The notes below the pieces were generated by a model that did no database searches, was not told the origin of the DNA, and saw nothing but the letters and a program-made list of their open reading frames with translations. The translations under genes were made by a program, and so were the position numbers. 64,000 nucleotides of DNA from an uncultured Pseudomonadales bacterium (GTDB taxonomy: Bacteria > Patescibacteriota > Microgenomatia > UBA1400 > PJMF01): assembly GCA_964455555.1 (NCBI GenBank), contig CAYVXV010000001.1:149096-213095 (forward strand), in the 5' to 3' direction. Below, one piece after another: positions 13,338 through 43,798 of this stretch; the first letter of the stretch is position 1, and each line of letters begins with the position of its first letter.

Positions 13338-13472
13338 GCGGCCAACGAGCCTAGCGTTGTCGTTGCAACCATTGTACTGAAAATACTCCGGTCATCAAAG
13401 ACCCAGCTATTCTAGCAGATGAGCACAGGTCTGCGATTTATTAGTTCTAGTTACAGGATTTAGCCGGTCCTC

Positions 13473-14966: not shown

Positions 14967-15028
14967 GCTGTAAAGAGTATTTTAATAGTAAAGCGTTTGG
15001 ACTACTGGTTCAAGTTCTAACCAGGGAT

Positions 15029-16240: not shown

Positions 16241-16328
16241 AACAAGGCTTTCCTGCCGCTCATCTAATCATATCAGGTCGAGGTATAACCTGAGTAGGGC
16301 GAGTTGGTTCAGTTAAAAATAGGCTAAG

Positions 16329-17369: not shown

Positions 17370-17403
17370 GAGGCAATGTCTTTATCATACACGGTAGAAG
17401 TTT

Positions 17404-20400: not shown

Positions 20401-21540
20401 GGGGCTGTCAGATTTAAGGACATCTTTAAGCTCTTGGCGGAAATTGTAGCCGGTGGTAAAGCCTGAAAGTTCTTCAAGGGCAATGGTATGGTTTTTAAGC
20501 GAATCAACCAATTGAGTAGCGTGCTGAGCAAAAGCCTCGCGCTCTTCTTCTGGCAGACTGAGAGTGTAGTCTTTGTAAAAGTTCTCGAGCGCCGCCACAA
20601 ACTGGGGTGAGCGGGAAATTTTTAGGTAAAGCTCATCGAGGATTTCCAACCGGCGGCGTGGATTAGCAAAAAGCAGGCCAATTTCCGCCTTATCCTTGCT
20701 GAGCATGATTTCCATGACTTCATTGAGCAGCAGATTTTTAAGCTCGGGGTTTGCCTCCAGATAAGCATAACTAATGTCCTTGGAGACAAAAAGCTCGTGC
20801 AAAGCCCGGTTGTAAATCCATGTTGCTTCATACTGCATTTTTTCCAGATCATCTCTGGTGGCAGTAGGTTCGACCTCTTCTTCCTGAGGGGGTAGTTGGT
20901 CAGCCCCTCCGGTCTCCGGTTCCTCTGGAGTTGTTGGAGCGGCTGAAACACCAGTGGGCGCTGGTGGTTCGTTAATTTGTTCATCTAGCTCATCAACCTC
21001 ATCTTCGAGTAGGTCCTGATTGATTTCCTCGGCAGCCTCTGAAAACTCCACTATTGTTGCCCGGGCTACAGCTTGCAGTAGTTTAAGAATTTTATCTCTA
21101 TGGCTATGAGCAATAGTTTCTGATACTAATTTTTCATCATCCCGAGAACCCGCGATTTCTATCAGTAATCGCTTCTGCAGGTCGGAAGACCTGAGAAAAC
21201 TATAAGCATTCAGGCTGGCCTGAGTTTCAGCCGTACCCCTGTGTAACAAAATAGCGGCAGCATCAGAGAGCAGCAGAATAGCGTCGGTATAAAATAGGTA
21301 ATTTTTGCGGTCCTTAGGATCAATTAGGGCTTTATCAGCATCAAATAGTGAAGAGGTGTGAACCTTAAAACTGGGTAGTTGGACCGGTTGCTGATCGAGT
21401 AGTTCGCCGTTAGGTTTAAAGGCGCGGCTGAGGTCAATAACTAAATCACGGACCTTTTCAAGTTTTTCGCTTGGGTCAATAAACTTCACTTGCTGAAGCT
21501 CAGTCAAAGGGACTGATTGATTTTGCTCGTCAGGCGCCAT
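17404..21540 (-). CDS. giant membrane protein: cytoplasmic alpha-helical/coiled-coil N-terminal half, glycine-zipper membrane segment, extracellular M23 (LytM) peptidase domain plus phosphodiester-glycosidase (NAGPA/DUF2233)-like domain
   Basis: M23 signature 'GTHVIVDTGSY...GNSSGNHLHFETVGIDV' (HxxxD and HLHFE); C-terminal 'FIFLDSGGSASF' NAGPA-like motif; Gly-rich 'GGLVGGIGGGIAGFLIGGPVGAVVGAGLGAAVGANAG'. The ORF track starts at TTG 21618; ATG (MAPDEQ) at 21540 is preceded by a 'tataat'. Confidence 0.7.
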   Translation of the reverse strand: MAPDEQNQSVPLTELQQVKFIDPSEKLEKVRDLVIDLSRAFKPNGELLDQQPVQLPSFKVHTSSLFDADKALIDPKDRKNYLFYTDAILLLSDAAAILLHRGTAETQASLNAYSFLRSSDLQKRLLIEIAGSRDDEKLVSETIAHSHRDKILKLLQAVARATIVEFSEAAEEINQDLLEDEVDELDEQINEPPAPTGVSAAPTTPEEPETGGADQLPPQEEEVEPTATRDDLEKMQYEATWIYNRALHELFVSKDISYAYLEANPELKNLLLNEVMEIMLSKDKAEIGLLFANPRRRLEILDELYLKISRSPQFVAALENFYKDYTLSLPEEEREAFAQHATQLVDSLKNHTIALEELSGFTTGYNFRQELKDVLKSDSPTIVGLGTREFTQVEGRIQVALKSLLINQGAEFEFVNIDVSSQASLQSLATHPHTAAWLLQHMSDEHLLLMLGIPEEYRLTEDAIRRLRKLLIKYAQLFAVELALEAEKTSLSAGLAPLSGKEADELAAGNHQIFERRLLPSLSSASSSVQEHGAERVARAVTNSVKDQHKRHLIAWNALSPDEKTLIYEYLGHDLDKITDRNMVPTNIHLLNFAELQMRAQEAIQLQAEIDQERLFQLETAHQEAIYIENLRRFYVESFIAQTSLEERERILEQLEYESLAALHQASLMELIQANEAAVSESHGGAPVGAGGDRTYSADDVAGVPAGIPGAQRPPPGGIRGRFASARSRFTDRFSKKVDARGKALSALKKAGGDKLATKALAAAGPWGKAAALLADKKKRKWILGALAVGGAFVVQGLIKMFTAGISGLIGGLVGGIGGGIAGFLIGGPVGAVVGAGLGAAVGANAGAAIGGGGFSLPSFGGSTGTSSYPALGSSSLPPSAQTAGATTGATGTATAGGSYNVAGTAASYLSTLPVGTAAAAGTIAGSILISLITLLIIFAAFLGPLPASYKSSTFDRTLSNFEGCWPTTGVIRAYQNYDPTLCAGCGGPHAVIRGGYGSYPGDGVAIDITTWDNSASDGGANAPVFTPYAGTASFYPDGTGMRSSDGQYKYGTHVIVDTGSYIMIFAHLLDFAPGISMSNITRDLQVQAGELLGRVDSTGNSSGNHLHFETVGIDVLDILPLTAAEKSAIRADESAIYGMSVNSRDCAAAQDDDDAGVSGYVAIGPKTADNFVVSNSAEASSPKYTCDWFRNNPELDVAINANYYNTPTQPIGIGGANPPVYFANANGRDPAYMEQTMRMFTVDNSGNFRIDPVPSAWYNRTDMPFVVGGYQKAVTGVLSDHPDGGGERNRVALGYGNANGECTDFTGEAIIFASIRTGNYSDLADIMQQCGADQFIFLDSGGSASFCSNSLSMPGGRPMPVNIGLKNAFIQTVGTSN

Positions 21541-21719
21541 GCTTTGATTATAGCGCAGGGTGTGTAGAGAATGGGAGGGTGAAGCGGGTATGTAAACCGC
21601 TGCTTTTCCTTTTTTCAACGTGTATGAAATAATAGAGCTATATTTACCTGCGGAAGGTTTTAAGTGTTAGTAGTTGATGCCAGATGTAATCATCAGGCGT
21701 TTTTGATATAATTCAGACA

Positions 21720-24575: not shown

Positions 24576-24644
24576 TGTTGCTTCAATAATTTCTGTATTT
24601 AAATTTAGCGTATTGATAAGAGGGGACAATAAAGCTTTCAAATT

Positions 24645-26405
24645 TTATTCCCGAGCTACTGGTGTTGTGAACTCACCTTTTCTTAAGCGCTCTTCTTCCC
24701 AATCAGCTTTTGCTGCCCTCTGTTCTGCTAATTGCCTCCGGGTTCTCCAATCTTCTGAGGATCGGCCTCTCTCACGCCCAAATAAGCCAGTTCGGTTTGC
24801 AATCCGCTGCAACCTAGCCTCATCTGTAAGTGCTGCTGTTCCACTATCGATTCCACTTTCTATATTTCTAAGCAATCCTGGGGAGGTGCCAATCATCGAC
24901 CCAACTCTCCCAAAAGTAGATGAACCTCTTGCAGTAGCATTTGCCATGTGTCTTCCCGTGCTATGACCGATGTTCATAAGCCTGCTTATATTCCAACGAT
25001 CACCCCTTGTCTCCACAACACCTCTTCCAAGTCCTTCGACCGCACCGGTTGCAGCACCCGCACCAGCACCCAATAATTTAGAGCTGACCGGCGCAGCTTG
25101 CCGCGCTGTCGTTGCTGCAGCCCCAGCCACCATCTCACCAAATCCTCCACTCGCCCCCAGCCTCTTCTTCACATCCTTAACAATTTCGGGCAAGGCCAGC
25201 AAAATAGCCAAGCCCATCAAGGAAGTTATCGCATCGGGCATGCCCCGGCCAACCAAGAAGGGTGGCATAAAGCCGCCATCACTGACGTTAACTTGCTGTG
25301 TAAACAGGTAGAACATTACAGCTACTACCAGAACAACAGGGAAAACTGCCAGGTTAGCAATCAGATTCCTAATCCAAGGACCGAAGGCATCTTTGCCTGG
25401 TATTGCACCGACCACCAACTGGATAGGAGCGGTCACCACCGAAATAACAATGGTGGCGTAAGATTTAAGCAGTTCAAAAAACAGCTTAAAGGCGCCGATT
25501 AGCACCGCTATGGCGATTACCAAACCTACAGTGATGCCGGCTGCCCAGCCAAAGGTGTCGCCGATAAGGCTGTTGTTAGTGCCTAGGATGGAGTTGATCA
25601 TTTTCTCAACAATATTACTGCCGGCCGAGAACCCCTCAACAGCCCCTGACTTCATAAAGACCCACGAAAGCTCAAAAATATTGTAATTGATGATGTCAGG
25701 ATTATCTCTGAAGACAACTCCAAACAAACCAATAATCAGGTACATTGATAAATACATTAGGTCGATCATGAAACCAGCTATAGCGTAGGAAAAAGTCACA
25801 AACAACAAGCTGACAATAATACTGGGAATTGCCTGCTGAGCAGTGATTGCCTGTTGATTGACCTTTTTTCTGAACATGATCAGGAAGCCGATGACAATAA
25901 AAATCACCACAAAGAACATGTAGGCAATATTCCTGAAAGTTTTCCAGAGTTCTAGAATGGGGTTAAGGGCTACAAAACCGAGGCCTTGGGCGTATGCCGG
26001 CTGGGCAATGCCAATCCCGGCAGAATTCAAAACATCTGCCACGTAAACATGAGTGTTGGCCGGAGGAGTAGCGTACATCTGGCCGATTAGGTAGGCTAAT
26101 CCCGGTACGATGCCCTGACGCTGGGCAACTGCGGGACTGCCATCTGGATTTTCATTAATCGTGCCGCCGGAAGACAAGCCATTAATCGGGACAATGTTTT
26201 GAGTTAGCTGAATAGCGGTGTAATTGAGTGTGTAATAAATTAAACACTCCAGGGAAGGATCTTCACAATTTTCGGTTGCCGAGAGGTATTCGTTGATTAA
26301 TTCTTGGTCTCTGGCTGCAGTGTTGTCTTGTGCCTGAGCAGTATTCGAAAGCACGCCAAATAGAATTACCACCACTGCTAATATACTCAGGGCACGTTTC
26401 GCCAT
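24645..26405 (-). CDS. VirB6/TrbL-like polytopic membrane protein with signal peptide and Gly/Ala/Arg-rich C-terminal cytoplasmic tail
   Basis: Signal peptide 'MAKRALSILAVVVILFGVLSNTAQA', at least 6 TM helices in the central 300 aa, hydrophilic tail; architecture typical of VirB6/TrbL. Confidence 0.6.
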   Translation of the reverse strand: MAKRALSILAVVVILFGVLSNTAQAQDNTAARDQELINEYLSATENCEDPSLECLIYYTLNYTAIQLTQNIVPINGLSSGGTINENPDGSPAVAQRQGIVPGLAYLIGQMYATPPANTHVYVADVLNSAGIGIAQPAYAQGLGFVALNPILELWKTFRNIAYMFFVVIFIVIGFLIMFRKKVNQQAITAQQAIPSIIVSLLFVTFSYAIAGFMIDLMYLSMYLIIGLFGVVFRDNPDIINYNIFELSWVFMKSGAVEGFSAGSNIVEKMINSILGTNNSLIGDTFGWAAGITVGLVIAIAVLIGAFKLFFELLKSYATIVISVVTAPIQLVVGAIPGKDAFGPWIRNLIANLAVFPVVLVVAVMFYLFTQQVNVSDGGFMPPFLVGRGMPDAITSLMGLAILLALPEIVKDVKKRLGASGGFGEMVAGAAATTARQAAPVSSKLLGAGAGAATGAVEGLGRGVVETRGDRWNISRLMNIGHSTGRHMANATARGSSTFGRVGSMIGTSPGLLRNIESGIDSGTAALTDEARLQRIANRTGLFGRERGRSSEDWRTRRQLAEQRAAKADWEEERLRKGEFTTPVARE

Positions 26406-26508
26406 GCGCTCATTATAACAAGAACTCCAAGTTGAGCATAGGGGTTAGGTTGTGTTTTCCGCCCGGCCAAAACTCCACATATCCGATATACTGTGATATA
26501 CTTTCATC

Positions 26509-27468
26509 ATGATAAATCAAGATATTGTCAGACAACTCCAATCTTTGCTCGAAAATGCCCGCACTATCTTTATTATGTATGGCAGCGACCCTAGCCTCGA
26601 CCAATTGGCGGTTGGCACAGCACTGCATCAGGCTATTTTGTCCTCCGGCAAAGATGCTCAGTTGTTTTCCCCTCAAAAACCAAGCGATGACTTTAGGCTT
26701 GCCGGAGCTGAGGCAACCAAAACCGAGGTCGGCAACCAAAATCTCACTGTCAGCTTTAATTATTCAGAGGAAGCCGTTGATAAAGTCAGCTACCACATTG
26801 GTGAAGAAACCAATAAATTCTATCTGACCATCAAACCCAAGAAGGGCTCTGAGCCGCTTAGTGCAGATGACGTCGAGTTCAGCTACACGGGAGCAGACAC
26901 TGACCTGATTTTTGTTATTGGAGTTGATCAGTTGGAAAACCTTGAGCAGCTTTATTTTGGCTACGAAAACTTATTTAGAGATGTTCCGGTTGTTAGCCTT
27001 AACACCTTTGCTACAGGTTTTGGTACGGTTAAAATTAACACCGGCAGTGCCGGCAGCATGAGTGAGATAGTTGCTAAGCTGCTTTTTGATCTTGGCTTCA
27101 CCCTGGATGACCGCAGCGCCACCAACTTGCTCATGGGCATCGATTGGGCAACTGATTCATTCCAATCTTTCACTTCAACCGCTGAAACCTTTGAGATGGT
27201 TGGAGCATTGATGCGCTCAGGTGCCAGAAGAATCAAACGCCGCGGCCAACTGGATCAAGCTTCAGTATTTCAAGACAGCTTGAGGCAACAATCTAAACCC
27301 CGGTTGGAACAGGCTCCAACCCAGCAGAAACCCAGGGAAATAACTGTTTCAGAAAGAAAACAAAGCCAGGACACCAAAGGAGACGGCCTTTCCAAAAGAA
27401 GGAAAGTTGATGCCACTAAACCAGGTGGTTTAAAACATCAGCCAGGCAAAGACGTTAGCTCAAAATAA
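26509..27468 (+). CDS. DHH/NrnA-fold-like protein with degenerate catalytic motifs and basic C-terminal tail
   Basis: Co-linear pattern match to NrnA ('TIFIMYGSDPSLDQLAVGTALHQAI', 'LIFVIGVDQLEN', 'SMSEIVAKLLFDLGF', 'ATNLLMGIDWATDS'), but DHH and GGGH motifs are absent. Confidence 0.4.
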   Translation: MINQDIVRQLQSLLENARTIFIMYGSDPSLDQLAVGTALHQAILSSGKDAQLFSPQKPSDDFRLAGAEATKTEVGNQNLTVSFNYSEEAVDKVSYHIGEETNKFYLTIKPKKGSEPLSADDVEFSYTGADTDLIFVIGVDQLENLEQLYFGYENLFRDVPVVSLNTFATGFGTVKINTGSAGSMSEIVAKLLFDLGFTLDDRSATNLLMGIDWATDSFQSFTSTAETFEMVGALMRSGARRIKRRGQLDQASVFQDSLRQQSKPRLEQAPTQQKPREITVSERKQSQDTKGDGLSKRRKVDATKPGGLKHQPGKDVSSK

Positions 27469-27525
27469 CTATTTCCTGTTTGTTTGGAAACTTATTCGAC
27501 GGTTTCAAAACTTAAGTCAAGTAGC

Positions 27526-30500
27526 CTAGGGCACCAGGCCGCAGTAAGAGGCTGCAGACCAGGCGTTCCAGTTGCCCCATCTCGTTCTGATTTCAATCAT
27601 TTTTTCAATATTCTTTAATGGGTCGAGCATGGCTGTTTCGCAGGAGTTGAGCAAAGCTTGGTCAGCAACTTGGCATGGTAGGTTCCAGGCGTTATAACCT
27701 GGTGTTCCGCTCACTCGGCCGCTGGCATCAGCAAGCGCCCCCGGACAATGTGCCATAAGGTTAATCTGGAAAAGGCCAATACTGTAGTCAACCGACTGGC
27801 TTGTTAGGCAGCGCTTGTTGACGGCGTCGCTGCCGCCACGGCTTTCTTTATTGCAGATGCGTGAGGCAATCTCAGCTTCTGCTTGAGGGTTGGAGAATCC
27901 AGCTTGCTCAAAGAAGGGAAGTAGTGTTTCAACACTGCAGGGCCCGGTCGGAATAATGTTGCAGCTGCCGTCTCCTGCGCCGGCACCGCTGCCACTGATT
28001 GAGCCAACTACTTCATTAGTGATTCCGCCGGCACATTTTCCAAGCAGGAACTCCTCAGTAGTCGAGCAGGAACTTAGATAGGCATGAGCTTGGCCGTAAT
28101 ATGTGTTGAGGCCCCGCTGCACGTTCCTGAGCCAATATCCCAGGCTTGCGCCCAGAAAACTGATCCCGCCTCTGCCTTCTTCTGTTGTGCCAATCCTGAA
28201 GTTTTTGGAGCAGTCATATTCCACCACCTCAATGGGCGGGTCGAGCGGAACCGGCTCGCCGCCGATAATTTCATAGTATTTTAGGTATCGGTTTTCTTCG
28301 CAGTTACCGCTAGTCGGGTCTTCCTGATAAGTATGGCTGGCACTGCCGCCGCCAAAATTTGCCTGGAAACCACTGCCGTCAAAGCGGTTTTTAGTGTCTC
28401 TCTCTTCTAGCTTGGCAACCTGCTGTTGGTTGAAGAAGGTGTGTTTCATCACTTCAGTCACTGATTCAAGTTCATAGCCAACCGGGTACACCAGGAAAAA
28501 GTCTACTTTAGCGGTTTGGCCGGCCGCGTTGCTCCATTTGCCCCTGACGACATCAAAGATAGTCTTAAGAGGGTTGTTTACAGTAGTTGCTCTTTGCGGG
28601 TTTTGGTTTCCTAAGAAAATATAATTAAAAACATCGGTACCAAAACCGTATCCCTCCCTATACACCCTTGATGAATCATCTGTGCTTGGGGGAATTATGT
28701 TGGCTGCTTCAAATATTTCCCTAACCGGTTCGCTTCCAAGGTTGTCACAACTGGGGGTGTTGCCATTTATCAAGTCTACAACTGACTTGCCCAGGACATC
28801 CTTGCAGGCTGCAGCACCATTCAAGCCGGCTAATTCTGCCGGGGTATTGCCGTCGCCTGCTAGACAATAAATTGTGCTCCCTGATCCTTGGGTTGAAGCT
28901 CCGGTGGCCTGTTGGCCGATAATAGTCCTCCTGTCCCTGGACTGCTTGTCAAAACCCGGGTTTTCCTCGTCTTCAGAAAGCTTGAATTTTTGCGGAACCA
29001 GAATATTTCTGGTCTGGCTGACTGCGTCAGTGAAGAAAAAATGGCCACTTTCTTCTCCGCCGCCTTTGTTCGTCAGTATATCAGGGATTTTAAAGGCAAC
29101 AATCAAAACTTCATGCTTTGGTTGGGCAGACTGGGAAAAAGAGAAGAAGCTAAAAGCATCGGCAACTGATCTTTGTTCGATTGAGGCAACCATAAAAGCC
29201 AGCCGATAGGAGCGGTTGATGTAGAGAGGAGTGTTTAAAATGCCTTTTTTCAGCTTGTCGTATTGAGGGGACGTATTGCCAAAAAGCCGCTGGCAGCCGG
29301 CCGTTTCTCCGCCGCTGTAGTAATCCGGCATGAAGTCGCTGATGTCATCAAGCAAAGTGTCAACAATATAGTCCGTATTGGGGATTGCCTCAGCTCTGGG
29401 AGCGCATCTGTCCCACGCTCCAAGCCGCTCACACATTTTTTGGGTGTTGGTTAGGATGCGAACAGACTGGATGCAGCGTTGTTCTGCTGCCATGAGCGAA
29501 TTAATTGGCGCAGTATTTACTTCCTGCTCAGGATAGCTTGAGGCATAGTAGTCCTCGAAGCCAAAATACTCTTCAAGGGATGAGGTCAGAAACCTTCTGC
29601 CCTCTGTATCCCGGAAGATAGGCACCCTGCCGCTTGAGGAATCAATGGTGTAATTTGATTCTGTTTCCAGCCGGATTCCCTCATAAAGCTCTAAAAAGCG
29701 GTTTATCAGGCCTTCTGTTTCAATATTAAGTTTGATGTTGGTGGGCTCGGCAGCGCAGTGGGCTTCATATCCTTGAGCTGCTAAATCCCCCCTGGTGGTG
29801 CTTACGCTTTGCTGGTCCGGCCGGCTTAGCGGATGAATGCCCCTGATGGGGTGGAGCAGATAGTATGCCGGGTCCACTAAATATTCAGGATACTTGCTCA
29901 GGTCATAGCCGAACACTCCTGATCCGCCGGCTGATAGGGCGCTGCCTCCTGGGGGCGCCTCGCCGATATAGAAAGGTTTGCCCAACTCCTGACTTTGAGA
30001 TAATGCCAGCATGGCGCTTTGTTTTTCTGATTCAGTGTAATAGTGAGCAGAGGTTACTGTAATAGCACCGATGCTGTTTGTATTTTTAAAATCTCCGGGC
30101 CCAGTGCTGTCGCAGCGGGTGGTGTCTTGACTAGCCATCTGGCCATAGCCGACATTTGAAGTTACGCCCCTTAGTTGGCTGCCGATCACTTGCCCCCAGG
30201 TTTTGTAGGCCGGCATAGCTGCAGCATTGCCTCCGCAGTGCGGTTCATTGGCCAGCTCGTAGCCCCAAAGAGCCGGATGAGACCCCAGCGCCCTGACCTG
30301 GCTGACTAAAGCTTGGTACTCTCCCTGATAACCGCTTTCATACCATTCTATTCCTGCTCCCTGAGGTATACCGCCGCCGCCATTGCTGTAATCACCGATG
30401 GCGATGATCATTTTTACACCAGCTTGCTGGGCTGCATTGAGAGCATTTTGAACACCGGCCGCTCCCTCAATCTTGGCAAAAGCTCGGACAACAGAGACAC

Positions 30501-30879
30501 CGCAGGTGTTTTTTAGCCAGGAAAGATGTTCTGCAGCTGTGCCGTCAGCGAACTCAGCGGCTCCAATATTATTAATGTTGACACCCACAAACCTGTCGGG
30601 ATATTGCTCGGCTTTTTCTCTGAGAGCTAAACAAATATCAATATTTGTATCTCTGTACCAGGAGAACTGATCTACCGCGATCTGACGGCCGTTTTGGTCA
30701 CCGCCATATTGCCAAACAAGGTATCCAGATGCTCCGGCTTGAAAAAAATCTTCAATTTCTTGGGAAAGGATGGCGGCATTGCTTTCTTGAGCGTTGGCTT
30801 TGGAAAGGTTTGCTGTTATCCCTGCCAGAAGAAAAATTGTTGCCGCTAGTGCCAGTAGTTTAAACGGGAGTATGCGCAC
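27526..30879 (-). CDS. giant secreted protein: N-terminal GH5-like (cellulase/mannanase superfamily) domain and C-terminal lytic transglycosylase (SLT, VirB1-like) domain
   Basis: Signal peptide 'MRILPFKLLALAATIFLLAGITANLSKANA'; GH5 catalytic-acid motif 'WGYELANEPH'; C-terminal SLT pattern 'CNKESRGGSDAVN...SIGLFQINLMAH...Y'. Confidence 0.7.
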   Translation of the reverse strand: MRILPFKLLALAATIFLLAGITANLSKANAQESNAAILSQEIEDFFQAGASGYLVWQYGGDQNGRQIAVDQFSWYRDTNIDICLALREKAEQYPDRFVGVNINNIGAAEFADGTAAEHLSWLKNTCGVSVVRAFAKIEGAAGVQNALNAAQQAGVKMIIAIGDYSNGGGGIPQGAGIEWYESGYQGEYQALVSQVRALGSHPALWGYELANEPHCGGNAAAMPAYKTWGQVIGSQLRGVTSNVGYGQMASQDTTRCDSTGPGDFKNTNSIGAITVTSAHYYTESEKQSAMLALSQSQELGKPFYIGEAPPGGSALSAGGSGVFGYDLSKYPEYLVDPAYYLLHPIRGIHPLSRPDQQSVSTTRGDLAAQGYEAHCAAEPTNIKLNIETEGLINRFLELYEGIRLETESNYTIDSSSGRVPIFRDTEGRRFLTSSLEEYFGFEDYYASSYPEQEVNTAPINSLMAAEQRCIQSVRILTNTQKMCERLGAWDRCAPRAEAIPNTDYIVDTLLDDISDFMPDYYSGGETAGCQRLFGNTSPQYDKLKKGILNTPLYINRSYRLAFMVASIEQRSVADAFSFFSFSQSAQPKHEVLIVAFKIPDILTNKGGGEESGHFFFTDAVSQTRNILVPQKFKLSEDEENPGFDKQSRDRRTIIGQQATGASTQGSGSTIYCLAGDGNTPAELAGLNGAAACKDVLGKSVVDLINGNTPSCDNLGSEPVREIFEAANIIPPSTDDSSRVYREGYGFGTDVFNYIFLGNQNPQRATTVNNPLKTIFDVVRGKWSNAAGQTAKVDFFLVYPVGYELESVTEVMKHTFFNQQQVAKLEERDTKNRFDGSGFQANFGGGSASHTYQEDPTSGNCEENRYLKYYEIIGGEPVPLDPPIEVVEYDCSKNFRIGTTEEGRGGISFLGASLGYWLRNVQRGLNTYYGQAHAYLSSCSTTEEFLLGKCAGGITNEVVGSISGSGAGAGDGSCNIIPTGPCSVETLLPFFEQAGFSNPQAEAEIASRICNKESRGGSDAVNKRCLTSQSVDYSIGLFQINLMAHCPGALADASGRVSGTPGYNAWNLPCQVADQALLNSCETAMLDPLKNIEKMIEIRTRWGNWNAWSAASYCGLVP

Positions 30880-30931: not shown

Positions 30932-31363
30932 CTAATATTGAAAATCAGAAGTGGGAATGCCGAATTGGGTAATAATGCTGACGCCGGTAAACTGAGAAAT
31001 TAGATTTAGGATAATAAAGGCGCTTAGAGATACAACCAAACCGATTACCGCATAGGTCATCATGCCTTTGGCACTTTGCACTTGTTGGGTGCTGCCACCT
31101 CCGGAAAGCATGTAGCGGAAGGCTCCGACAATAAACATCACAAAGCCCGCCAGCCCGATAACGGTAATGATTACCGTGAACACATTGGCAATCAGGCACT
31201 CCAATCCTTGGAGGGTGGCTACATCGCCACTGCCGTATTCTGTATCAGCTACGCAGACACCAGACCAAGATGAAGTTTGGGCAGAAACAGGTGCTGCGCC
31301 GGCGAAGGCCCCAACCAGAACAATTAAAAATAAGATTGCAGAGTGTTTAAGGCTTTTTAGCAT
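30932..31363 (-). CDS. T4SS pilin-like (VirB2/TrbC-type) paralogue P1
   Basis: Signal peptide (MLKSLKHSAILFLIVLVGAFAGAAPVSAQ), then C-terminal two-helix module 'VIGLAGFVMFIVGAFRYMLSGGGSTQQVQSAKGMMTYAVIGLVVSLSAFIIL'. Start trimmed from 31447 to the internal ATG to remove overlap with P2. Confidence 0.6.
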   Translation of the reverse strand: MLKSLKHSAILFLIVLVGAFAGAAPVSAQTSSWSGVCVADTEYGSGDVATLQGLECLIANVFTVIITVIGLAGFVMFIVGAFRYMLSGGGSTQQVQSAKGMMTYAVIGLVVSLSAFIILNLISQFTGVSIITQFGIPTSDFQY

Positions 31364-31391
31364 TAATTTAGTATAACAATTTGCGGCAGGA

Positions 31392-31967
31392 TTAGCGATT
31401 ATTAATGTTGGAGCTATTGATAAGCTCTTCCAACGAAGAATAGCCAAGGAAGTTGAGGATGATAATTAGAATAGCATAGCTGGCTGCCAAGATGATTATT
31501 CCCACAACGGCAGCTACGATGGTGCTTTGAGCAGCCTGAGTTTTGCCTTTGTCACCTCCTGAAGTTATCCATCTGAAGGCACCCAAGATTAAGTAGAAAA
31601 AGACGAGTAGGGCGGCAATTACAAAAACGAATTGCAGCAGGCTGTTAAAGAGTTCACTAAAGCTGCGGAAAAAACCTTCCGGCAGGTTGATGTCTACCCG
31701 CTGAGGTGAAACAGGAGCCTCTTCCTCTACAACAATTACTCTGTCGCCCGAATCCGTGACTACCCGAGTGCCGTCCTCCAGAATAATTACTTCTGAATCA
31801 GTCAGTGTAGCTTCATCAATTTCGGTGCTCAAATATAAAACACCGTCTTGGCCGCGGACCAAACGAACTTCGCCATCAGTGGAATCGGCGGATACAGCCT
31901 GGGAAAAGTTGAACGCCATGAAGGAAAATACAATTATTATTAGGATGCGGGATAATAGTTTAATCAT
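31392..31967 (-). CDS. T4SS pilin-like paralogue P2
   Basis: Signal peptide 'MIKLLSRILIIIVFSFMAFNFSQAVSA'; module 'FVFVIAALLVFFYLILGAFRWITSGGDKGKTQAAQSTIVAAVVGIIILAASYAIL...NFLGY'. Confidence 0.65.
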   Translation of the reverse strand: MIKLLSRILIIIVFSFMAFNFSQAVSADSTDGEVRLVRGQDGVLYLSTEIDEATLTDSEVIILEDGTRVVTDSGDRVIVVEEEAPVSPQRVDINLPEGFFRSFSELFNSLLQFVFVIAALLVFFYLILGAFRWITSGGDKGKTQAAQSTIVAAVVGIIILAASYAILIIILNFLGYSSLEELINSSNINNR

Positions 31968-32007
31968 CTATAACAACTATTATAGCGCAAAATCAGGCAA
32001 AAGTCAC

Positions 32008-32040
32008 TAAAAAAGCCCTCGATAAGAGGGCTTTTTTATT
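32008..32040. terminator. bidirectional intrinsic terminator inside the pilin array (between P2 and P3)
   Basis: aaaaaa-gccctc-gataa-gagggc-tttttt at 32009-32037; A-run and T-run on either side. Confidence 0.6.
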
Positions 32041-32059
32041 ATTCAAATGATTTCCCGGT

Positions 32060-32452
32060 TTAAACGCTTTGCAGTAAGCCTTCGAGGCCCTGTTCATAGC
32101 CGAGGAAGTTAAGGACGATCTGTAGAATAGCCCAAGCTGCTGCTAGGACGATGATGCCGACTACAGCGTTGGTGATCATGTTTCTGGCGTTTTCTGTTTT
32201 GCCTTTGTCACCTCCTGAGGTAATCCAAGTGATGGCACCTAGGATCAAGTAGAAGAAGACGAGTAGGGCTGCGATTACAAAAACAAAATTTAGGATGCCA
32301 TTGATTAGGTCACCGATGTTGCCGAAGAAACCGGTTGGAACATCAATGTCGATGTCTCCCTGGGACTGGGCAAATGCGGGTGTAATTGTTGCAACCATTG
32401 CCGAAGCGGTCACGGAAGCGTAGGCGGCATATTGTTTGAGGGATTTTATCAT
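32060..32452 (-). CDS. T4SS pilin-like paralogue P3
   Basis: Signal peptide ending 'TPAFAQS'; module 'FVFVIAALLVFFYLILGAITWITSGGDKGKTENARNMITNAVVGIIVLAAAWAIL...NFLGY', about 85% nt identity to P2 over the module. Confidence 0.65.
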   Translation of the reverse strand: MIKSLKQYAAYASVTASAMVATITPAFAQSQGDIDIDVPTGFFGNIGDLINGILNFVFVIAALLVFFYLILGAITWITSGGDKGKTENARNMITNAVVGIIVLAAAWAILQIVLNFLGYEQGLEGLLQSV

Positions 32453-32608
32453 ATACTCCTTTTCCTAAATTTTTAGATACACATAGCTAAAAAATTATAC
32501 TCATACTTCGAGTGTTGCGTCAAGTTTCGAAAATATCTTATAGTTAACATTATAACTTGGTCAAAATAGGCCGTCAAGTTGCTTGGCCTGGATGTTCTAA
32601 ATTACCAG

Positions 32609-33082
32609 TTAATCAGAGATGGTAATTCCCTCAAGGTTGAGGAAGTTAAAGAGAAGCTGCAGTATGGCGAGGACTGCTGCCAGGACAATAATGCCAATAA
32701 CAGCATTGAGCATTCTGGTACGAGCTTTTTCGAGCTTGCCACTGTCGCCTCCGGCAGTTATCCAGCCAAGTGCTCCCAAAACCAAGTTTAGAAGTACCAG
32801 AAAGGCTGCGATGGCCAGGATAATTTGCAGAATTCTGCTGATGAGCGATCCGAATTCACTACCGGGGTCGTCTTCATCTACACTGACTATTTGAGGCAGT
32901 TCGCTGGCGCCTTCATTGAGAATATCTAATCGAGGTGCGTTTTGAGTGCTACTTCCTCCGCCGCCTCCACCGCCGCCAGCGCCGGCGTCATCGGCTGCCA
33001 TGATGCTTGGGGGTGAAATAAGTAGTAGTCCGGCCAAAAGAAAGGGCAGTGATTTTTTGAGAAGGTTTTTTAATGATGGCAT
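32609..33082 (-). CDS. T4SS pilin-like paralogue P4 (Gly-rich ectodomain)
   Basis: Signal 'MPSLKNLLKKSLPFLLAGLLLISPPSIMAADD', 'GAGGGGGGGGSS' linker, module 'ILAIAAFLVLLNLVLGALGWITAGGDSGKLEKARTRMLNAVIGIIVLAAVLAIL'. Start trimmed from 33187 to the internal ATG. Confidence 0.6.
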   Translation of the reverse strand: MPSLKNLLKKSLPFLLAGLLLISPPSIMAADDAGAGGGGGGGGSSTQNAPRLDILNEGASELPQIVSVDEDDPGSEFGSLISRILQIILAIAAFLVLLNLVLGALGWITAGGDSGKLEKARTRMLNAVIGIIVLAAVLAILQLLFNFLNLEGITISD

Positions 33083-33086
33083 TAGC

Positions 33087-33515
33087 CTAATCTCCTGTAT
33101 TTGCAAATGGCAGTATTGGTGAAAGGATGCTGAATTCATCTCCGAAGAACAACCGGCTGATAAAGGCAATAATGGTAAATGAAGCAACTAGGATAATGAT
33201 GCCTATAATTGCATTAGTGAGGCGGCGCTGGGCTGCCTGCACTTTGCTGGCGTCATCTCCAGAGGTAATCCACTGCACGGCTCCCATGATAAACATCACT
33301 ATTACTACAATGGCACCGATCGTAATAGCGGCATTCCAGACAAGAACGAAGTATGAAACAAATAGCTCGCCAGAACGGGCTTCTTCCAGGCTTTCCTTGC
33401 TGCCAAGTTTTCCGGTCACAGGGTTTTCAATTTGAGCAAAGGCTGTAGATGCCTGAAAAAGTAAGGCAGAAATTGCTGTTAAAATTGAAGAAACTGCCGG
33501 CTTTAGTTTGTTCAT
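33087..33515 (-). CDS. T4SS pilin-like paralogue P5
   Basis: Signal peptide '...QASTAFAQ'; module 'ITIGAIVVIVMFIMGAVQWITSGDDASKVQAAQRRLTNAIIGIIILVASFTII'. Confidence 0.6.
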   Translation of the reverse strand: MNKLKPAVSSILTAISALLFQASTAFAQIENPVTGKLGSKESLEEARSGELFVSYFVLVWNAAITIGAIVVIVMFIMGAVQWITSGDDASKVQAAQRRLTNAIIGIIILVASFTIIAFISRLFFGDEFSILSPILPFANTGD

Positions 33516-33520
33516 GGGCT

Positions 33521-33898
33521 TTACTGTGCTCCCGGAATAATTTGTAAGAGCATCCTGCCTGGTTCGAGTAGGTTCAGGCCGACAATGCTGCCAATTAGGC
33601 CGATGATGGCATAGGCGGCAACCAAGATAATCAGGCCGATAACTGCATGAAGAATTTTTTGCTGGGCACTGGCAACTTTACTGGCGTCCCCGCCGGCGCC
33701 GATAATTTGGAAAACGGCTGTCAAGAAGTAAAAGATAAAAAATAGGCTGGCCAGGATTGTCAAGAAACCAATGACATTTGAGATAATCAACTCTAGATTA
33801 GAGAGCGCTCCTTCCTGGGTAGCGGAATCTTCACTAAAAGCAGGGCTGACAGGCTGAAATTCGCCAAGAGATTTGGCAATCATAACGGGTAGTGACAT
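33521..33898 (-). CDS. T4SS pilin-like paralogue P6
   Basis: Module 'LTILASLFFIFYFLTAVFQIIGAGGDASKVASAQQKILHAVIGLIILVAAYAII'. Confidence 0.55.
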   Translation of the reverse strand: MSLPVMIAKSLGEFQPVSPAFSEDSATQEGALSNLELIISNVIGFLTILASLFFIFYFLTAVFQIIGAGGDASKVASAQQKILHAVIGLIILVAAYAIIGLIGSIVGLNLLEPGRMLLQIIPGAQ

Positions 33899-33968
33899 AG
33901 CCTAAGTATTTTAACCTTTTTTTAATTACTACTCTAGTAGTGTGTCATTTATACCGGGCAAACTCCGT

Positions 33969-34502
33969 TTATTGCTCTAATGCCCCTTTTATTGTTGGCT
34001 CAAGTATAAAAGTTGCATCTCCAAAAAAGATTAAACCAACAATAGCGGCTATTGTATATGCAGAAACAATAACGAGCAGGCCGATTACACTAAAAGTAAG
34101 TTTTTCGCGGACTTGGGTGTTGGCTTGAGTATTTCCCATGCTGGTAATGTAGATGAAGCCGGCAGCCACGAAGTTGAGCATGGCTAGAATACCGCCAACA
34201 ATGGCAACAAGCCTAATAATGATGCTCAGGAAAGCGATAATACCGACACCATCACCAAACCTGGTTCTGATGGCAGCAGGAGGAACGACCGCCCCCACAA
34301 CTTTTGAACCAACGTTGGAGCCACAGGGCATACCTGAATCAGCCACAATCACGTTGCAGCTCGCATCAAGACACCTACAGGTTGAGCCGTTGTCGCACTG
34401 GCCCTCATACTCGCAGACAGCATTGGCCTTTTCCGGAGCAACCGCCATGGATGCTCCAACCAAGAAAACTAAGACAATGAGTGCTGCGGCTATTTTTTTC
34501 AT
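33969..34502 (-). CDS. T4SS pilin-like paralogue P7 (Cys-rich ectodomain)
   Basis: Signal 'MKKIAAALIVLVFLVGASMAVA'; eight Cys in ectodomain; module 'IVGGILAMLNFVAAGFIYITSMGNTQANTQVREKLTFSVIGLLVIVSAYTI...FFGD'. Confidence 0.6.
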   Translation of the reverse strand: MKKIAAALIVLVFLVGASMAVAPEKANAVCEYEGQCDNGSTCRCLDASCNVIVADSGMPCGSNVGSKVVGAVVPPAAIRTRFGDGVGIIAFLSIIIRLVAIVGGILAMLNFVAAGFIYITSMGNTQANTQVREKLTFSVIGLLVIVSAYTIAAIVGLIFFGDATFILEPTIKGALEQ

Positions 34503-34516
34503 GTTTTTGTTTCTTT

Positions 34517-35023
34517 TTATATGGTCGGGTTTAAGATGTAGCTGGCATCACCAAAGAAAACTAGGCCGATGATTCCTCCTAATGTGTAGAACGAAACAAT
34601 TAAAATTAGGCCAACCAAGCTTGATGTCAGCAGATTTCTAACCTTGGTATGGGTGCCGGGATCTCCTGAGCCAGTAATGTAGAAGAAGGCGGCCAATAGT
34701 ACATTAATCACAACCCAAATACCCCCGATTACGGTGGCAATCCCAATCAGCCTTGAGATAAAGAAAATTATTGCTGTTTCGCCTTCTGAGACTCCGGCAG
34801 CTTGGTTATAAACATCTGTGCCCGGAGGAGATTCTATTTGCCCGATACCAAATTCACAGCCCGCATCATTTCGGTCGCAGACATCAGATTGTTCCGGAAT
34901 AACTGTTGGTGCCGGCGATTGAGCAGCGGCCAGGGCAGCCATGTTCAGAAATATGGCAAATACCAGGGTGTAAAATACTATTTTTGTCAGAATCAGGCGG
35001 TTGTTCTTTATAAAAGTCAGCAT
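34517..35023 (-). CDS. T4SS pilin-like paralogue P8
   Basis: Module 'TVIGGIWVVINVLLAAFFYITGSGDPGTHTKVRNLLTSSLVGLILIVSFYTL...FFGD'. Confidence 0.6.
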   Translation of the reverse strand: MLTFIKNNRLILTKIVFYTLVFAIFLNMAALAAAQSPAPTVIPEQSDVCDRNDAGCEFGIGQIESPPGTDVYNQAAGVSEGETAIIFFISRLIGIATVIGGIWVVINVLLAAFFYITGSGDPGTHTKVRNLLTSSLVGLILIVSFYTLGGIIGLVFFGDASYILNPTI

Positions 35024-35025
35024 TT

Positions 35026-35397
35026 TTAGATTGGAATATTTACTCCGGTAATCATTTTTACAATCTGAACAACCCAGTAGGCAGTGAACATAATGATAAA
35101 ACCGATAACCGCTGTGGTAATAATGCTTTTAGCATCTTCCGCACCTTTTTTTCCTCCTGAAATGAATTTAAAACCGGCAAATACGATTAAAAAAAACAGG
35201 ATAATGCCTGCAAGTACAAAAAGGTTGCGGACAATTAGGTTTACAAGAAAAGCTGGATCGGAATAAAGTTGGCTGATTGGGGTATCGTCGTTGAGTCGCA
35301 GGCAGTCTCCTAGAGAAATTCCTGCACCATCAACTCCTCCGCTGCCGGGATCACAGTCAGTCTGAGCGTACGCAGTAGGCACAAGCTTGCTTAGCAT
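35026..35397 (-). CDS. T4SS pilin-like paralogue P9 (first gene of the tandem array)
   Basis: Module 'FVLAGIILFFLIVFAGFKFISGGKKGAEDAKSIITTAVIGFIIMFTAYWVVQIV'. Confidence 0.6.
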   Translation of the reverse strand: MLSKLVPTAYAQTDCDPGSGGVDGAGISLGDCLRLNDDTPISQLYSDPAFLVNLIVRNLFVLAGIILFFLIVFAGFKFISGGKKGAEDAKSIITTAVIGFIIMFTAYWVVQIVKMITGVNIPI

Positions 35398-40589: not shown

Positions 40590-40591
40590 TC

Positions 40592-41914
40592 TTAGCCTCC
40601 AAATCCTGGTATTTGCAAGACTGAGTAACCGATAAATTGCAGAATGGCTACAGAGAAGATTATAAAGATAAGCCCGGTAACTGCTGCTACCAGCATTTCT
40701 TTGGCTTCACCAGTGCGTTTGGGATCGCCTGCTGAGACACTGATGATAAACCCGGAGCCAAGGATCATGAGTAGAGAAATGCCTCCGCCCATGGTAAGTC
40801 CAAGTCTGATGAATGTGCCGATAATGTCTTTGGGCGAGCGGTTTATGCAGCCGACTGCTGTCCAAACACCAGCCCGGCCTTCTTCACCTTCATCGCCGCC
40901 TTCGCCTCCGCTTGCACATTTCAAGCAATTGTCTTTGGCCTGAGAACCTTCCGGTAATTGATCACAAAGATAATAAGGCGTGCTCCCGCCGTCCTCAGTC
41001 GAGGTAGTAATCGAGGTAGATGAGGTGTTGCATTGGTCAGCACTGCAGCCGTCTTTTGTAGAAACACCTTTTAACTCGCAGCCGGCAAAGTCTGTTGTCC
41101 GCGGTAATGATTGCGAATTATAAGCCATCATTTTGAAATCATATTTAGCATCCCGGGCCGCACTATTTAAAGTGATGGTTGTATTTACTACACCATTAAC
41201 TGAGTCAGCATGAACGTTGGCCTCACCTCCTAGCCCCGCTTGCTTTATGTCGATTTCTACCCGGCCGTTATAGGGGTTGCCTGCATGCTTCAGACCGCTA
41301 ACTGATAAAGTAATGGGATTGCTACTTCCATGTGCCAGACAGGAATTTCCGGTGTAGTAGCAGGTATTGCCGCTGTTTTGTTGTGAGATTGTCCAGTTGC
41401 ATGGTCCTGAATATTGATCGCTTGAAGTGTTGTATGTGCCGAGTTCACACTCATTTGCAAATGAGCCCAACAGTGCTTTTCGTACTAAGACTACATAATT
41501 TTTATTGTCACCGCTGGTTGGAACAAGCGCACCCATGTCTTTGATGGTGAAGGTGGCTACATAGTTTGTTACCTTAACACAAGCTGAGTTGTTGGGTTGG
41601 CACAACTCGCTAACATTGCCGCCGGCGTCGAGCCTAAAACTGGGGCTTTTGACTAAGCTAGTGGAATATGCATCTAGAACTTTGGCAGCAAAGACCTCAA
41701 GGTGGTAGTCTCGGCTGGTGTCGAATCCTTGGCTCATGTTTATAGTAACCACATGATTGGCACCGGCCGTATAGGCTGGCAAGGTTATTCCTGTTCCGGT
41801 TACATTTGAATATGCCGGACAAGCGCTGGCTGCAAAGACAGGTGTGGGGGAAAGCACTAAACCACTAATAGCAACAAAGGTGACTACCAGCAGAATCAAG
41901 AGCGCTTTTTTCAT
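40592..41914 (-). CDS. large pilin-like protein P11: ~330-aa Cys-rich secreted ectodomain fused to the C-terminal VirB2-like two-helix module
   Basis: Signal 'MKKALLILLVVTFVAISGLVLSPTPVFAAS'; C-terminus 'GGGISLLMILGSGFIISVSAGDPKRTGEAKEMLVAAVTGLIFIIFSVAILQFIGY'; ~20 Cys in ectodomain; Gly/Glu-rich linker. Confidence 0.55.
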   Translation of the reverse strand: MKKALLILLVVTFVAISGLVLSPTPVFAASACPAYSNVTGTGITLPAYTAGANHVVTINMSQGFDTSRDYHLEVFAAKVLDAYSTSLVKSPSFRLDAGGNVSELCQPNNSACVKVTNYVATFTIKDMGALVPTSGDNKNYVVLVRKALLGSFANECELGTYNTSSDQYSGPCNWTISQQNSGNTCYYTGNSCLAHGSSNPITLSVSGLKHAGNPYNGRVEIDIKQAGLGGEANVHADSVNGVVNTTITLNSAARDAKYDFKMMAYNSQSLPRTTDFAGCELKGVSTKDGCSADQCNTSSTSITTSTEDGGSTPYYLCDQLPEGSQAKDNCLKCASGGEGGDEGEEGRAGVWTAVGCINRSPKDIIGTFIRLGLTMGGGISLLMILGSGFIISVSAGDPKRTGEAKEMLVAAVTGLIFIIFSVAILQFIGYSVLQIPGFGG

Positions 41915-42058: not shown

Positions 42059-43798
42059 ATGTTCTGCCCAGATAAAATTTTTACCATTTTTTCAAGCAAA
42101 ATATTATATTTGCTGGGTTTGCTGTTAGTTGTCTTTGTTGTGGGGGCGCTCAGCCCCGGCAAATATATTCTGGCGGACGAAGTAAAAGAACTGCAAAAAC
42201 AAATTGACGACCTGGAACACCTAAAAAAACTTTCAGAAGATGCCACCACTCCACTTGAGGCAGAGGTGGCCAGCCTTGACCAAAAAATCCAAAATGCCAG
42301 AGCTGGCATTGTTAGGGCCAGGCAGCAGAGCGCTGAGCTGGCCATAGAGATTGAAAAACGCGAAGCGGAAATGTCCTACCAGTACACCATTCTTTCTAAG
42401 CGGATTGCCGAGCAGTATAAAAAAGCCCGGACTTTTTCTCCGCTTTTAATGCTGCTTTCCAGCAATGATGCCAAAGAGCTTACAAAAGATTTGGCCTATC
42501 GAAGCTCAGTCAAGGCTCAAGACAACAGGATGATTCATGCACTTAGTGAAGACATAGCCAACTTGGAGAGAGATAAAAGGACGCTTGAAGAAAATCAAGT
42601 TACGCTAGCCAGATTGGAAAGACAACTCGATGAGCAGGCAGCGTTCTTTAAGGGGGAAATTGCTAAGGCTAGGGATTATCAAAAGGATTTGACAGGAAAA
42701 ATTGCCGAGCTGTCCGCCCGCCAGCAGGAAATTATTAATGCCAGGAGCGGCGGCTTTACCGTGAGCGGAGACAGTGAGTTGGCAGATGATCGCCTGGCTT
42801 CTATTGTGGGTTTTCGCGAGTCTGCTCCAGGCGGTTATTTTGCTGTATTTTCTTTTGGAGCATATACACACCGCAATGGCATGAGCCAATATGGGGCCTT
42901 AGGCAGAGCTAAGAGCGGCCAAAATTATGAGCAGATACTTAAGGCTTATTATCCCAATACTTCTATCAAAAAAGATTACAGCGCAATGAGTCAAATCAGT
43001 GTGGATGGCCATGGATCCGGTTCGTTTGAGGATTGGTACCTGATGAGAATCTACGAAGTTCCTGCCAGCTGGCCAGCCGACGTGCTCAGGGCACAGGCAA
43101 TCGCAGCCAGGACATATGCTATCCGCTACACCAACAATGGCCAGAAATCGATTTGCGCTACTGAGAAGTGCCAAGTTTTCAAAGACTCACCAAAAGGAGG
43201 GGCTTGGGAGCAAGCCGTTAAGGATACCAAAGGAATGGTATTGGTTGATGGGGGCGGAAGCCCTGTGTCCACTCAGTATGCTTCGACTCACGGAGGCTTT
43301 ACCAATACATCCGGTTGGGATACCACCGATGGTTCCGGCGGCTCGAATTTTATGGATAAAGCCTATGACAAAATTGGCGGCTCTCCTTGGCTATACAAAG
43401 CTTGGTGGAGAGAGGGTTACAGTAGCGGCGGCAATACCTGCGGCCGATCCAACCCATGGTTAAGCCCGGAAGAAATGGCGGATATAGTCAATGCCCACTT
43501 GGTTTTGTCCAAGGGTTCGTCCAGTGAGGCAGAGCGGATTAGCCCAGTGACGACTTCATGCTGGGGAGGTAATCCTTACAGCCATGGGGAGTTAAGAGAC
43601 GTAGCTCAAAAATACGGGGGAATTTCTTCCGCCAATAGTGTTTCGGTCACCCAGGGAAATGGCACAACTTCCAAGGTGACTATCAACGGCGTTAGTATGA
43701 GCGGCAGTGAGTTTAAAAAAGCCTACAACCTAAGGGCGCCGGGAAATCTCCGTATTCCTCAGAGCAGTTTTGCCTTCTTCAACGTTGAGCGGAAGTAG
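42059..43798 (+). CDS. SpoIID/LytB-domain protein with N-terminal TM and ~200-aa coiled-coil region (EnvC-like coiled coil)
   Basis: 'VLRAQAIAARTYAIRYTNNGQKSICATEKCQVFKD...KGMVLVDGGGSPVSTQYASTHGGFT' matches SpoIID/LytB conserved blocks. Confidence 0.8.
   Translation: MFCPDKIFTIFSSKILYLLGLLLVVFVVGALSPGKYILADEVKELQKQIDDLEHLKKLSEDATTPLEAEVASLDQKIQNARAGIVRARQQSAELAIEIEKREAEMSYQYTILSKRIAEQYKKARTFSPLLMLLSSNDAKELTKDLAYRSSVKAQDNRMIHALSEDIANLERDKRTLEENQVTLARLERQLDEQAAFFKGEIAKARDYQKDLTGKIAELSARQQEIINARSGGFTVSGDSELADDRLASIVGFRESAPGGYFAVFSFGAYTHRNGMSQYGALGRAKSGQNYEQILKAYYPNTSIKKDYSAMSQISVDGHGSGSFEDWYLMRIYEVPASWPADVLRAQAIAARTYAIRYTNNGQKSICATEKCQVFKDSPKGGAWEQAVKDTKGMVLVDGGGSPVSTQYASTHGGFTNTSGWDTTDGSGGSNFMDKAYDKIGGSPWLYKAWWREGYSSGGNTCGRSNPWLSPEEMADIVNAHLVLSKGSSSEAERISPVTTSCWGGNPYSHGELRDVAQKYGGISSANSVSVTQGNGTTSKVTINGVSMSGSEFKKAYNLRAPGNLRIPQSSFAFFNVERK

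Follow-up and report, generated by a model that had tools for sequence, protein, structure and literature searches.

A large pilin gene with a hypervariable ectodomain in Patescibacteria: a candidate host-attachment part of the type IV secretion system

We analyzed a 64,000-nucleotide (nt) stretch of DNA, hereafter the window, from contig CAYVXV010000001.1 of an uncultured bacterium placed in the Patescibacteriota (Microgenomatia), and in it a large pilin gene that we call BIG (40592..41914, minus strand). The listed open reading frame (ORF) starts with ATG and runs without interruption through 440 amino acids (aa), and an independent Logan assembly contig carries a 100% identical protein with the same neighbours. 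Next to BIG on the same strand lies a partner pilin of 177 aa, P10 (40056..40589). Nine VirB2-like pilin paralogues of 123 to 192 aa form an array at 30932..35397, also on the minus strand, and all nine match the Pfam family PF18895 (T4SS_pilin; T4SS, type IV secretion system). The distance from the array end (35397) to P10 (40056) is 4.66 kb, in agreement with the value of about 5 kb given in the initial annotation of this DNA. BIG is 2.3 to 3.6 times as long as the other pilins, so the earlier statement that it exceeds three times their size holds for some of them and fails for others.

The BIG protein can be divided into a signal peptide, two beta-sandwich domains, a stem and a helical hairpin, all of which are seen in an AlphaFold2 model (mean pLDDT 82) computed from a 29-sequence alignment. 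The Sec-type signal peptide (residues 1 to 28; 41831..41914, minus strand, as are the parts that follow) consists of MKK, a hydrophobic core and VFA|AS. It was assigned from hydropathy, from A28, which is invariant in the alignment, and from a model helix at residues 2 to 21; by the AXA rule, cleavage would follow VFA28. The ectodomain begins with D1 (residues 29 to 166; 41417..41830), a beta-sandwich with strands between residues 36 and 163 and a pLDDT of 85 to 97, and continues with a second beta-sandwich, D2 (residues 167 to 292; 41039..41416; strands between 172 and 287). The Cys-rich stem (residues 293 to 358; 40841..41038) contains the motifs (F/Y)xLCxQ(I/L) and CxxC, a variable Gly/Glu linker (SGGEGGDEGEEGRAG, residues 335 to 349) and G(V/I)WTA(V/I)GCI, the last of which is invariant and makes a beta-hairpin that the model combines with short helices. 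A stem hidden Markov model (HMM) matches BIG alone among the window ORFs. The VirB2-like hairpin (residues 359 to 440; 40595..40840) has model helices at 361 to 393 and 398 to 432, the loop SAGDPKRTGEAKE and a conserved C-terminal IPGFGG. Hydropathy places hydrophobic segments at residues 1 to 29, 367 to 397 and 404 to 436.

The signal-like N-terminus and the Gly/Glu-rich linker had both been described before and are present. The number of cysteines had been put at about 20, and the count is 14, of which 12 are kept in at least 26 of the 29 sequences. In D1, C32 and C156 are invariant and C105/C112 form a variable pair; D2 has the conserved cysteines C172, C185, C192, C279 and C290; and the invariant residues of the stem are C317, C330, C333, C356, W351, T352 and A353. 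This pattern is compatible with six or seven extracellular disulfides. The mature protein would have about 412 aa, and about 330 aa precede the hairpin.

The initial annotation regarded the C-terminal module of BIG, GSGFIISVSAGDPKRTGEAKEMLVAAVTGLIFIIFSVAIL, as the two-helix pilin module of the array, and profile comparison confirmed this above the background expected of hydrophobic helices. For the control, the nine array paralogues alone were made into an HMM, which was run unfiltered on all 119 ORFs of 80 aa or longer in the window, including YidC, the VirB6-like polytopic protein and other membrane proteins. P10 scored 54 bits and BIG 29 bits, and the next best ORF reached 3.4 bits. Reciprocally, the HMM of the BIG-family hairpin matched all ten other pilins at 17 to 30 bits, with the next best at 8.5 bits. 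The polar loop is kept too, as GDPKRTGEAKE in BIG versus the consensus GGDKGK..A(K/R). These profile scores indicate that the BIG hairpin is homologous to the array pilins, polar loop included. Chance likeness between hydrophobic helices was excluded by the window-wide control. BIG also has the layout of PF18895 proteins, namely, an N-terminal signal peptide (with predicted cleavage), two hydrophobic helices and a short polar loop, and differs from them in that it is not a small protein made essentially of the hairpin. The prepilin-peptidase motif of type IV pilins (type IV pilus or type II secretion) is absent from BIG, which has an ordinary Sec signal and C-terminal hydrophobic helices. As applied to BIG, the term pilin refers to the conjugative (VirB2) type.

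When BIG was searched against 5.8 billion clusters, 125 matches were returned, most of them 370 to 460 aa long, and many covered 100% of the query at 30 to 50% identity. The closest homologue is just 50% identical, and 28 homologues align with BIG from end to end, making up the 29-sequence alignment together with the query. When one genome per GTDB species was scanned, relatives were confirmed in 184 species representatives and 80 loci were kept. These come from 80 different records, nearly all titled Patescibacteria, Pace-/Woesebacteria or Microgenomates. Many of the metagenome-assembled genome records that bear the gene pair are titled 'uncultured Pseudomonadales bacterium', and others Limisphaerales, Methylococcaceae or TM6 (CP011212). 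Such non-Patescibacteria titles among loci L006 to L083 look like taxonomic mislabels of the source records.

It had been pointed out that BIG could be an annotation or assembly artefact, in which a frameshift joins an upstream gene to a pilin. The ORF is uninterrupted, the protein recurs unchanged on the independent assembly, the 28 homologues align over their whole length, and stem and hairpin follow an N-terminal ectodomain in 83 BIG-lineage ORFs. Together with the relatives in 184 species representatives, these results led us to reject the artefact, whose probability we consider negligible, and the fusion of pilin and ectodomain is real. Its distribution points to a fusion that is ancient and widely conserved in Patescibacteria.

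Synteny and domain architecture were counted over 83 loci and their 83 BIG-lineage ORFs. The order at the locus is SpoIID, large pilin, P10-type pilin: in 81 of the 83 loci, BIG has a divergent SpoIID gene upstream, and in 81 of 83 the next gene downstream, in the same orientation, encodes a P10-type pilin. In about half of the loci, genes of the RecF-like and UppS types are found on the flanks of the pair. In the window, the SpoIID-domain protein (579 aa; 42059..43798, plus strand; Pfam) is likewise divergent from BIG; by eye, its N-terminal part contains a transmembrane (TM) segment and a coiled coil.

P10, which was characterized by Pfam, HMMs and a model with a pLDDT of 76, has a signal peptide, a six-Cys knob, a disordered linker, the motif GPSNETFDxLNPL and the hairpin. 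Its start codon lies 2 nt past the BIG stop codon, and the last codons of BIG, GGA TTT GGA GGC TAA, contain the Shine-Dalgarno sequence GGAGG 7 nt before the P10 ATG (40590-40606, minus strand). Elsewhere, for example, at loci L011 and L021, the orthologous ORFs overlap by 4 nt. From this spacing, BIG and P10 look like one transcription and translation unit, and the overlap suggests that their translation is coupled. A scan for promoters and terminators around the pair gave scores no better than those of shuffled sequence.

P10 orthologues keep the GPSNETFDxLNPL motif and the hairpin, and their N-terminal parts are very variable. Large orthologues of 336 to 543 aa with Cys-rich repeats (CGxW..C....CC) occur in several genomes (L011, 5236-6591; L021, 4927-6447; L027, 5286-6623; L059, 4756-6387; L070, 1867-3366; L017, 5269-6279; L019, 4802-5836), and four proteins of the P10 lineage carry a D1-type domain detected by the BIG D1 HMM (E values of 5e-4 to 1e-9). 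The P10 of the window is thus a minimal version of its lineage. Comparison of the two families indicates two conserved, apparently co-translated pilin lineages, both of which carry variable ectodomains and between which modules appear to move.

The initial annotation proposed that dN/dS be determined for the ectodomain. Because the nearest homologue is 50% identical and synonymous sites would be saturated, region-wise identity was used instead, together with the presence or absence of modules. Mean pairwise identity in the family was 24% for D1, 26% for D2, 39% for the stem and 62% for the hairpin. According to the domain HMMs, the 83 BIG-lineage ORFs comprise 37 with D1, D2, stem and hairpin, 21 with D2, stem and hairpin, 24 with stem and hairpin only and 1 with D1, stem and hairpin. 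D1 was scored as absent or replaced in 46 of the 83. Many homologues share just the last ~130 residues and have unrelated N-terminal parts of similar size.

The adjacent SpoIID protein served as a measure of distance. Its mean identity was 58% where the full ectodomain matched, 56% where D2 and stem matched and 54% where only stem and hairpin did. At L067, SpoIID is 69% identical, yet BIG aligns over residues 311 to 440 only, and at L030 (SpoIID 63% identical) the common part of BIG is again stem and hairpin only. By this measure, the extent of alignable ectodomain is independent of phylogenetic distance. When the ectodomain alone (residues 30 to 299) was searched against 1.84 billion cluster representatives, 24 matches were obtained, all of 297 to 447 aa; as these are of family size, the domain seems confined by sequence to the BIG family. 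The pattern is that of a constant anchor with a fast-diverging, exchangeable exposed module. These comparisons support the view that divergence and swapping of the ectodomain far outpace change in the hairpin and in the adjacent housekeeping genes, as would be expected of a part that recognizes a variable partner.

The Ig-like beta-sandwich is the commonest building block of bacterial surface adhesins. The D2 position of two homologues (P0063 and P0069) matches the Big_1, MG4 and Invasin_D3 profiles. BIG had been proposed as an adhesin, and of this proposal the Ig-like character of the ectodomain and its fast divergence and swapping speak in favour, whereas the structure-based comparison gave a generic Ig-like sandwich and no specific adhesin or lectin fold. 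No sequence relative of BIG with a solved structure was found, the Pfam scan of BIG gave no PrgB-type or other adhesin family, and neither BIG nor P10 had a match in the NCBIfam scan.

The window contains, on the strand and replicon of BIG and 5 to 30 kb away from it, T4SS genes as well as the nine-pilin array, with housekeeping genes in between. The T4SS-like cluster (11211..30879, minus strand; Pfam and NCBIfam) is located beside dnaA, with DnaN and DnaA encoded at 8093-11052. On the minus strand it encodes VirB4 (11211-13337), a TrsD-like protein (13473-14966), a PrgI/VirB3-like protein (15029-16240), an M23 peptidase protein of 1404 aa (17404-21618), a VirB6-like polytopic protein (24645-26405) and an SLT_3 lysozyme-like protein of 1117 aa (27526-30879); an ORF of 951 aa without a family match lies on the plus strand (21720-24575). 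The VirB6-like protein weakly matches the Mycoplasma integrative and conjugative element (ICE) family Mbov_0396 and pLS20_p028. The M23 and SLT_3 proteins are two very large proteins of the wall-hydrolase type. Inside the former, G+C content rises to 0.526 at 18001-20000, compared with about 0.45 elsewhere, and a long Gly/Ala-rich hydrophobic stretch occupies residues ~700 to 960 (~18.7 to 19.5 kb).

A distant locus, L002, at which SpoIID is 46% identical to that of the window, repeats this arrangement of T4SS genes, array and pair. The six array pilins of L002 (15375-17759) each have a clear best counterpart in the window array, with hairpin identities of 44 to 76%; between the same two genomes, the hairpins of BIG are 59% identical and those of P10 63%. 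The array paralogues compared thus look like orthologous lineages of long standing and not like copies that diversified recently, which sits awkwardly with a simple antigenic-variation reading. At L002, the array with its sigma factor is again ~4 kb from the pair. The window has a divergent ECF-type (extracytoplasmic function) sigma-70 factor at the head of its array (35431-36012, plus strand; Pfam), and L002 and L003 have one in the same position; it is possibly a dedicated regulator of the array.

The genes between array and pair (36606-40012) belong to the mevalonate pathway, among others, and were assigned from the Pfam families of the syntenic L002 and L003 genes. They include a GHMP-type kinase (37308-38336), a diphosphomevalonate-decarboxylase-like ORF (38266-39294) and a UppS-like ORF (39302-40012); an ORF of 210 aa (36606-37238) occupies the position of the NUDIX gene in L003. 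As listed, the decarboxylase-like ORF overlaps the kinase by 71 nt, and its true start is probably later. Directly upstream of BIG, an ORF of 144 aa (41911-42345, minus strand) overlaps the SpoIID gene on the other strand. It is of low complexity, rich in Ser, Ala and Cys, and uncalled as a gene on the identical Logan contig, and is probably spurious.

The analysis shows how BIG is built, that its hairpin is homologous to the array pilins, that the fusion is old and widespread, that BIG is paired with P10, that a conserved stem and hairpin contrast with a hypervariable and shuffled ectodomain, and that the pair occurs in a T4SS context. By its hairpin, BIG would be a specialized member of the VirB2-like T4SS_pilin family, which presumably forms a pilus on the chromosomal, origin-proximal T4SS of monoderm type in Patescibacteria. 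We propose that BIG is a surface-displayed, variable binding module carried on a pilin hairpin and a minor subunit, made with P10, of a Patescibacteria T4SS pilus, and we give this reading a probability of about 50%. The BIG precursor would be exported by Sec and its signal peptide cut after VFA28. Its N-terminal part of ~330 aa would fold outside the membrane as two Ig-like sandwiches on a disulfide-stabilized stem. The hairpin would insert such that its two ends face the exterior and its basic loop (DPKRTGEAKE) the interior, as for VirB2/TraA pilins. BIG would then be taken from the membrane pool, with the co-translated P10, into the T4SS pilus as a minor subunit, from which the ectodomain would project and, as a module that can be exchanged, bind to the surface of a host or partner cell. 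Possibly, BIG and P10 form the first layer of the pilus and hence its tip.

Structures of the F, pED208 and T-pilus show the pilin termini on the outer surface and the loop toward the lumen. VirB2-type pili have an outer diameter of 74 to 87 Å (PMC9905601). Fitting a domain of ~35 kDa onto each subunit of such a fibre would be difficult, which favours a minor-subunit role. It is very unlikely that BIG is the major pilin of a separate, decorated fibre with an ectodomain on each subunit. Flagellins are an example of helical filaments decorated with outer domains, so such an arrangement exists elsewhere. However, nine small pilins are already available for a shaft, and the frequent replacement of the ectodomain by unrelated sequence is hard to square with a packed lattice.

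Several points weigh against a role of BIG in a pilus. The packing limit is just as compatible with BIG having no part in a fibre. Both genes of the pair are located outside the T4SS cluster, amid housekeeping genes (SpoIID, UppS and the mevalonate pathway). The Pfam PF18895 model gives BIG 17.9 bits (E value of 3e-3), below its gathering score of 26.6, and many BIG orthologues are above this cut-off (for example, P0069 with 33.7, P0101 with 31.1 and P0047 with 28.4 bits). Conservation of the BIG hairpin (59%, versus 44 to 76%) does not mark a nucleator. Fold searches with the model gave matches of low TM-score to generic sandwiches of the Ig, FN3 and MG types, and the label of adhesin would thus derive from the type of domain and the evolutionary pattern. 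Finally, it is from sequence and model that we infer the export of BIG, its topology, its incorporation into a fibre, its position there and its binding function.

The main rival takes up several of these points. In it, BIG stays out of any fibre and serves at the cell surface as a membrane-anchored adhesin, receptor or envelope scaffold, with the hairpin re-used as an anchor, and perhaps acts together with P10 and the SpoIID-type wall enzyme. It would account for the location of the pair in a syntenic housekeeping block outside the T4SS cluster, divergent from SpoIID at nearly all loci, and for the size of the ectodomain, which is considerable for a helical pilus lattice; stem and Gly/Glu linker would make a suitable stalk above the membrane. 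However, the hairpin has retained the traits specific to the array-pilin family, the polar loop among them, at an equal level of conservation, and a mere anchor would need none of this. The SpoIID neighbourhood, too, may be just conserved gene order, since RecF-like and UppS genes are also syntenic. We consider this explanation doubtful.

As reported previously, Patescibacteria have MPF_FATA-like T4SSs near dnaA/virB4, with VirB2-like arrays of 2 to 11 genes that are especially common in Microgenomatia, and a relaxase is usually absent (Quinonero-Coronel et al. 2025, PMC12102498). In the Saccharibacterium Southlakia epibionticum, the T4SS and the pilin array are essential for epibiotic growth (Wang et al. 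2023, PMC10633639). A pilus of these systems is still described as a possibility ('potential to elaborate conjugative pili'; PMC12857230). VirB2 and VirB5 are otherwise absent from the T4SSs of Gram-positive (monoderm) bacteria; Patescibacteria are the stated exception, with only VirB2-like pilins described (PMC12857230). In the Patescibacteria survey, 'no adhesins, such as PrgB, were detected' (PMC12102498). As neither an adhesin nor a monoderm VirB5 has been reported, the attachment role in these systems is unfilled (PMC12102498, PMC12857230).

BIG shares with the VirB2-like pilins of Patescibacteria (PF18895) the hairpin module, the phylum and a genome with an array and a cluster of the VirB4/VirB3/VirB6 type. 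Unlike the array pilins, which have 30 to 100 aa before the hairpin, it has a folded, Cys-rich ectodomain of ~330 aa, a stem of its own (CxxC, GxWTAxGCI) and the IPGFGG end, and it lies outside the array, paired with P10. VirB2-like pilins that bear an ectodomain were not encountered in the literature, of which our coverage was incomplete.

VirB5 lacks a pilin hairpin and is a soluble, helical protein. The role proposed for BIG resembles that of VirB5/TrwJ, the minor pilin and tip adhesin of Gram-negative T4SSs, in being that of a minor, exposed part of the pilus that touches the target; BIG differs in that its binding part is fused to the pilin itself. Neither sequence nor fold is alike, as BIG has no Pfam or NCBIfam match to the VirB5/TraC family and the fold searches gave beta-sandwiches only, with no helical-bundle fold. 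PrgB-type adhesins of Gram-positive conjugative T4SSs resemble BIG in placing Ig-like domains on a monoderm surface in aid of an MPF_FATA-like T4SS, and differ in being anchored to the wall, whereas BIG is anchored by a pilin hairpin. No LPXTG was found on reading the BIG sequence, which ends in ...LQIPGFGG after the two TM helices. BIG would work like an attachment factor of the VirB5 or PrgB type, yet it belongs to neither family, its hairpin placing it in the VirB2-like family of Patescibacteria.

The likeness to VirB5 leads to another explanation, in which BIG and P10 are a nucleator or cap that forms the first layer on VirB6, starts polymerization of the array pilins and ends up at the tip, with binding being secondary. 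No VirB5 homologue is known in such systems, and the R388 model puts a VirB5 pentamer on VirB6 before VirB2 is added (PMC12857230, citing Mace et al. 2022). The 80 kept loci from 80 records are consistent with one pair per genome, and the close or overlapping genes suggest coupled translation. However, BIG resembles VirB5 in neither sequence nor fold, and the idea that an unusually conserved hairpin marks a nucleator was rejected, as the array-pilin orthologues are equally conserved. We regard a primary role in nucleation as unlikely.

Two further systems can be compared. The Trw T4SS of Bartonella also has multiple pilin paralogues, whose variation has been suggested to adapt binding to different host surfaces (PMC12102498, PMC12857230). 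In contrast to Trw, the paralogues compared here are old orthologous lineages, and variability is concentrated in the ectodomains of two pilins. The Mbov_0395 family of Mycoplasma ICEs (NF045849) is a pilin-like two-helix protein in monoderm conjugation, as here. One array member (32060-32452) scores 31.2 bits against it (E value of 1.3e-7), below the cut-off of 40; the model has 80 positions, the size of a hairpin, and BIG and P10 do not match it or any other NCBIfam model. We know of no ectodomain-bearing member of this family.

A more far-reaching version of our proposal, which we put forward tentatively and at less than even odds, is that BIG and P10 represent the first natural case in which pilins of the VirB2 type bring folded domains with them into a T4SS pilus. 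They would form a host-recognition end that replaces VirB5 or PrgB, and the exchange of modules (D1, D2 and the Cys-rich repeats) within and between the two lineages would set the host range of Microgenomatia.

A large part of bacterial diversity belongs to the Patescibacteria, which seem to spend their lives attached to other microbes. The only species among them that is open to genetics cannot grow on its host without the T4SS and the pilin array (PMC10633639). BIG is a plausible candidate for the host-attachment part of this system. The conserved two-gene cassette, with constant membrane or pilus parts and hypervariable, modular exposed parts, supplies candidates that can be expressed for host-binding assays, and the variation of the ectodomain offers a sequence marker that can be compared with host range in metagenomes. 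If the proposal is true, a VirB2-type pilin tolerates a large N-terminal fusion.

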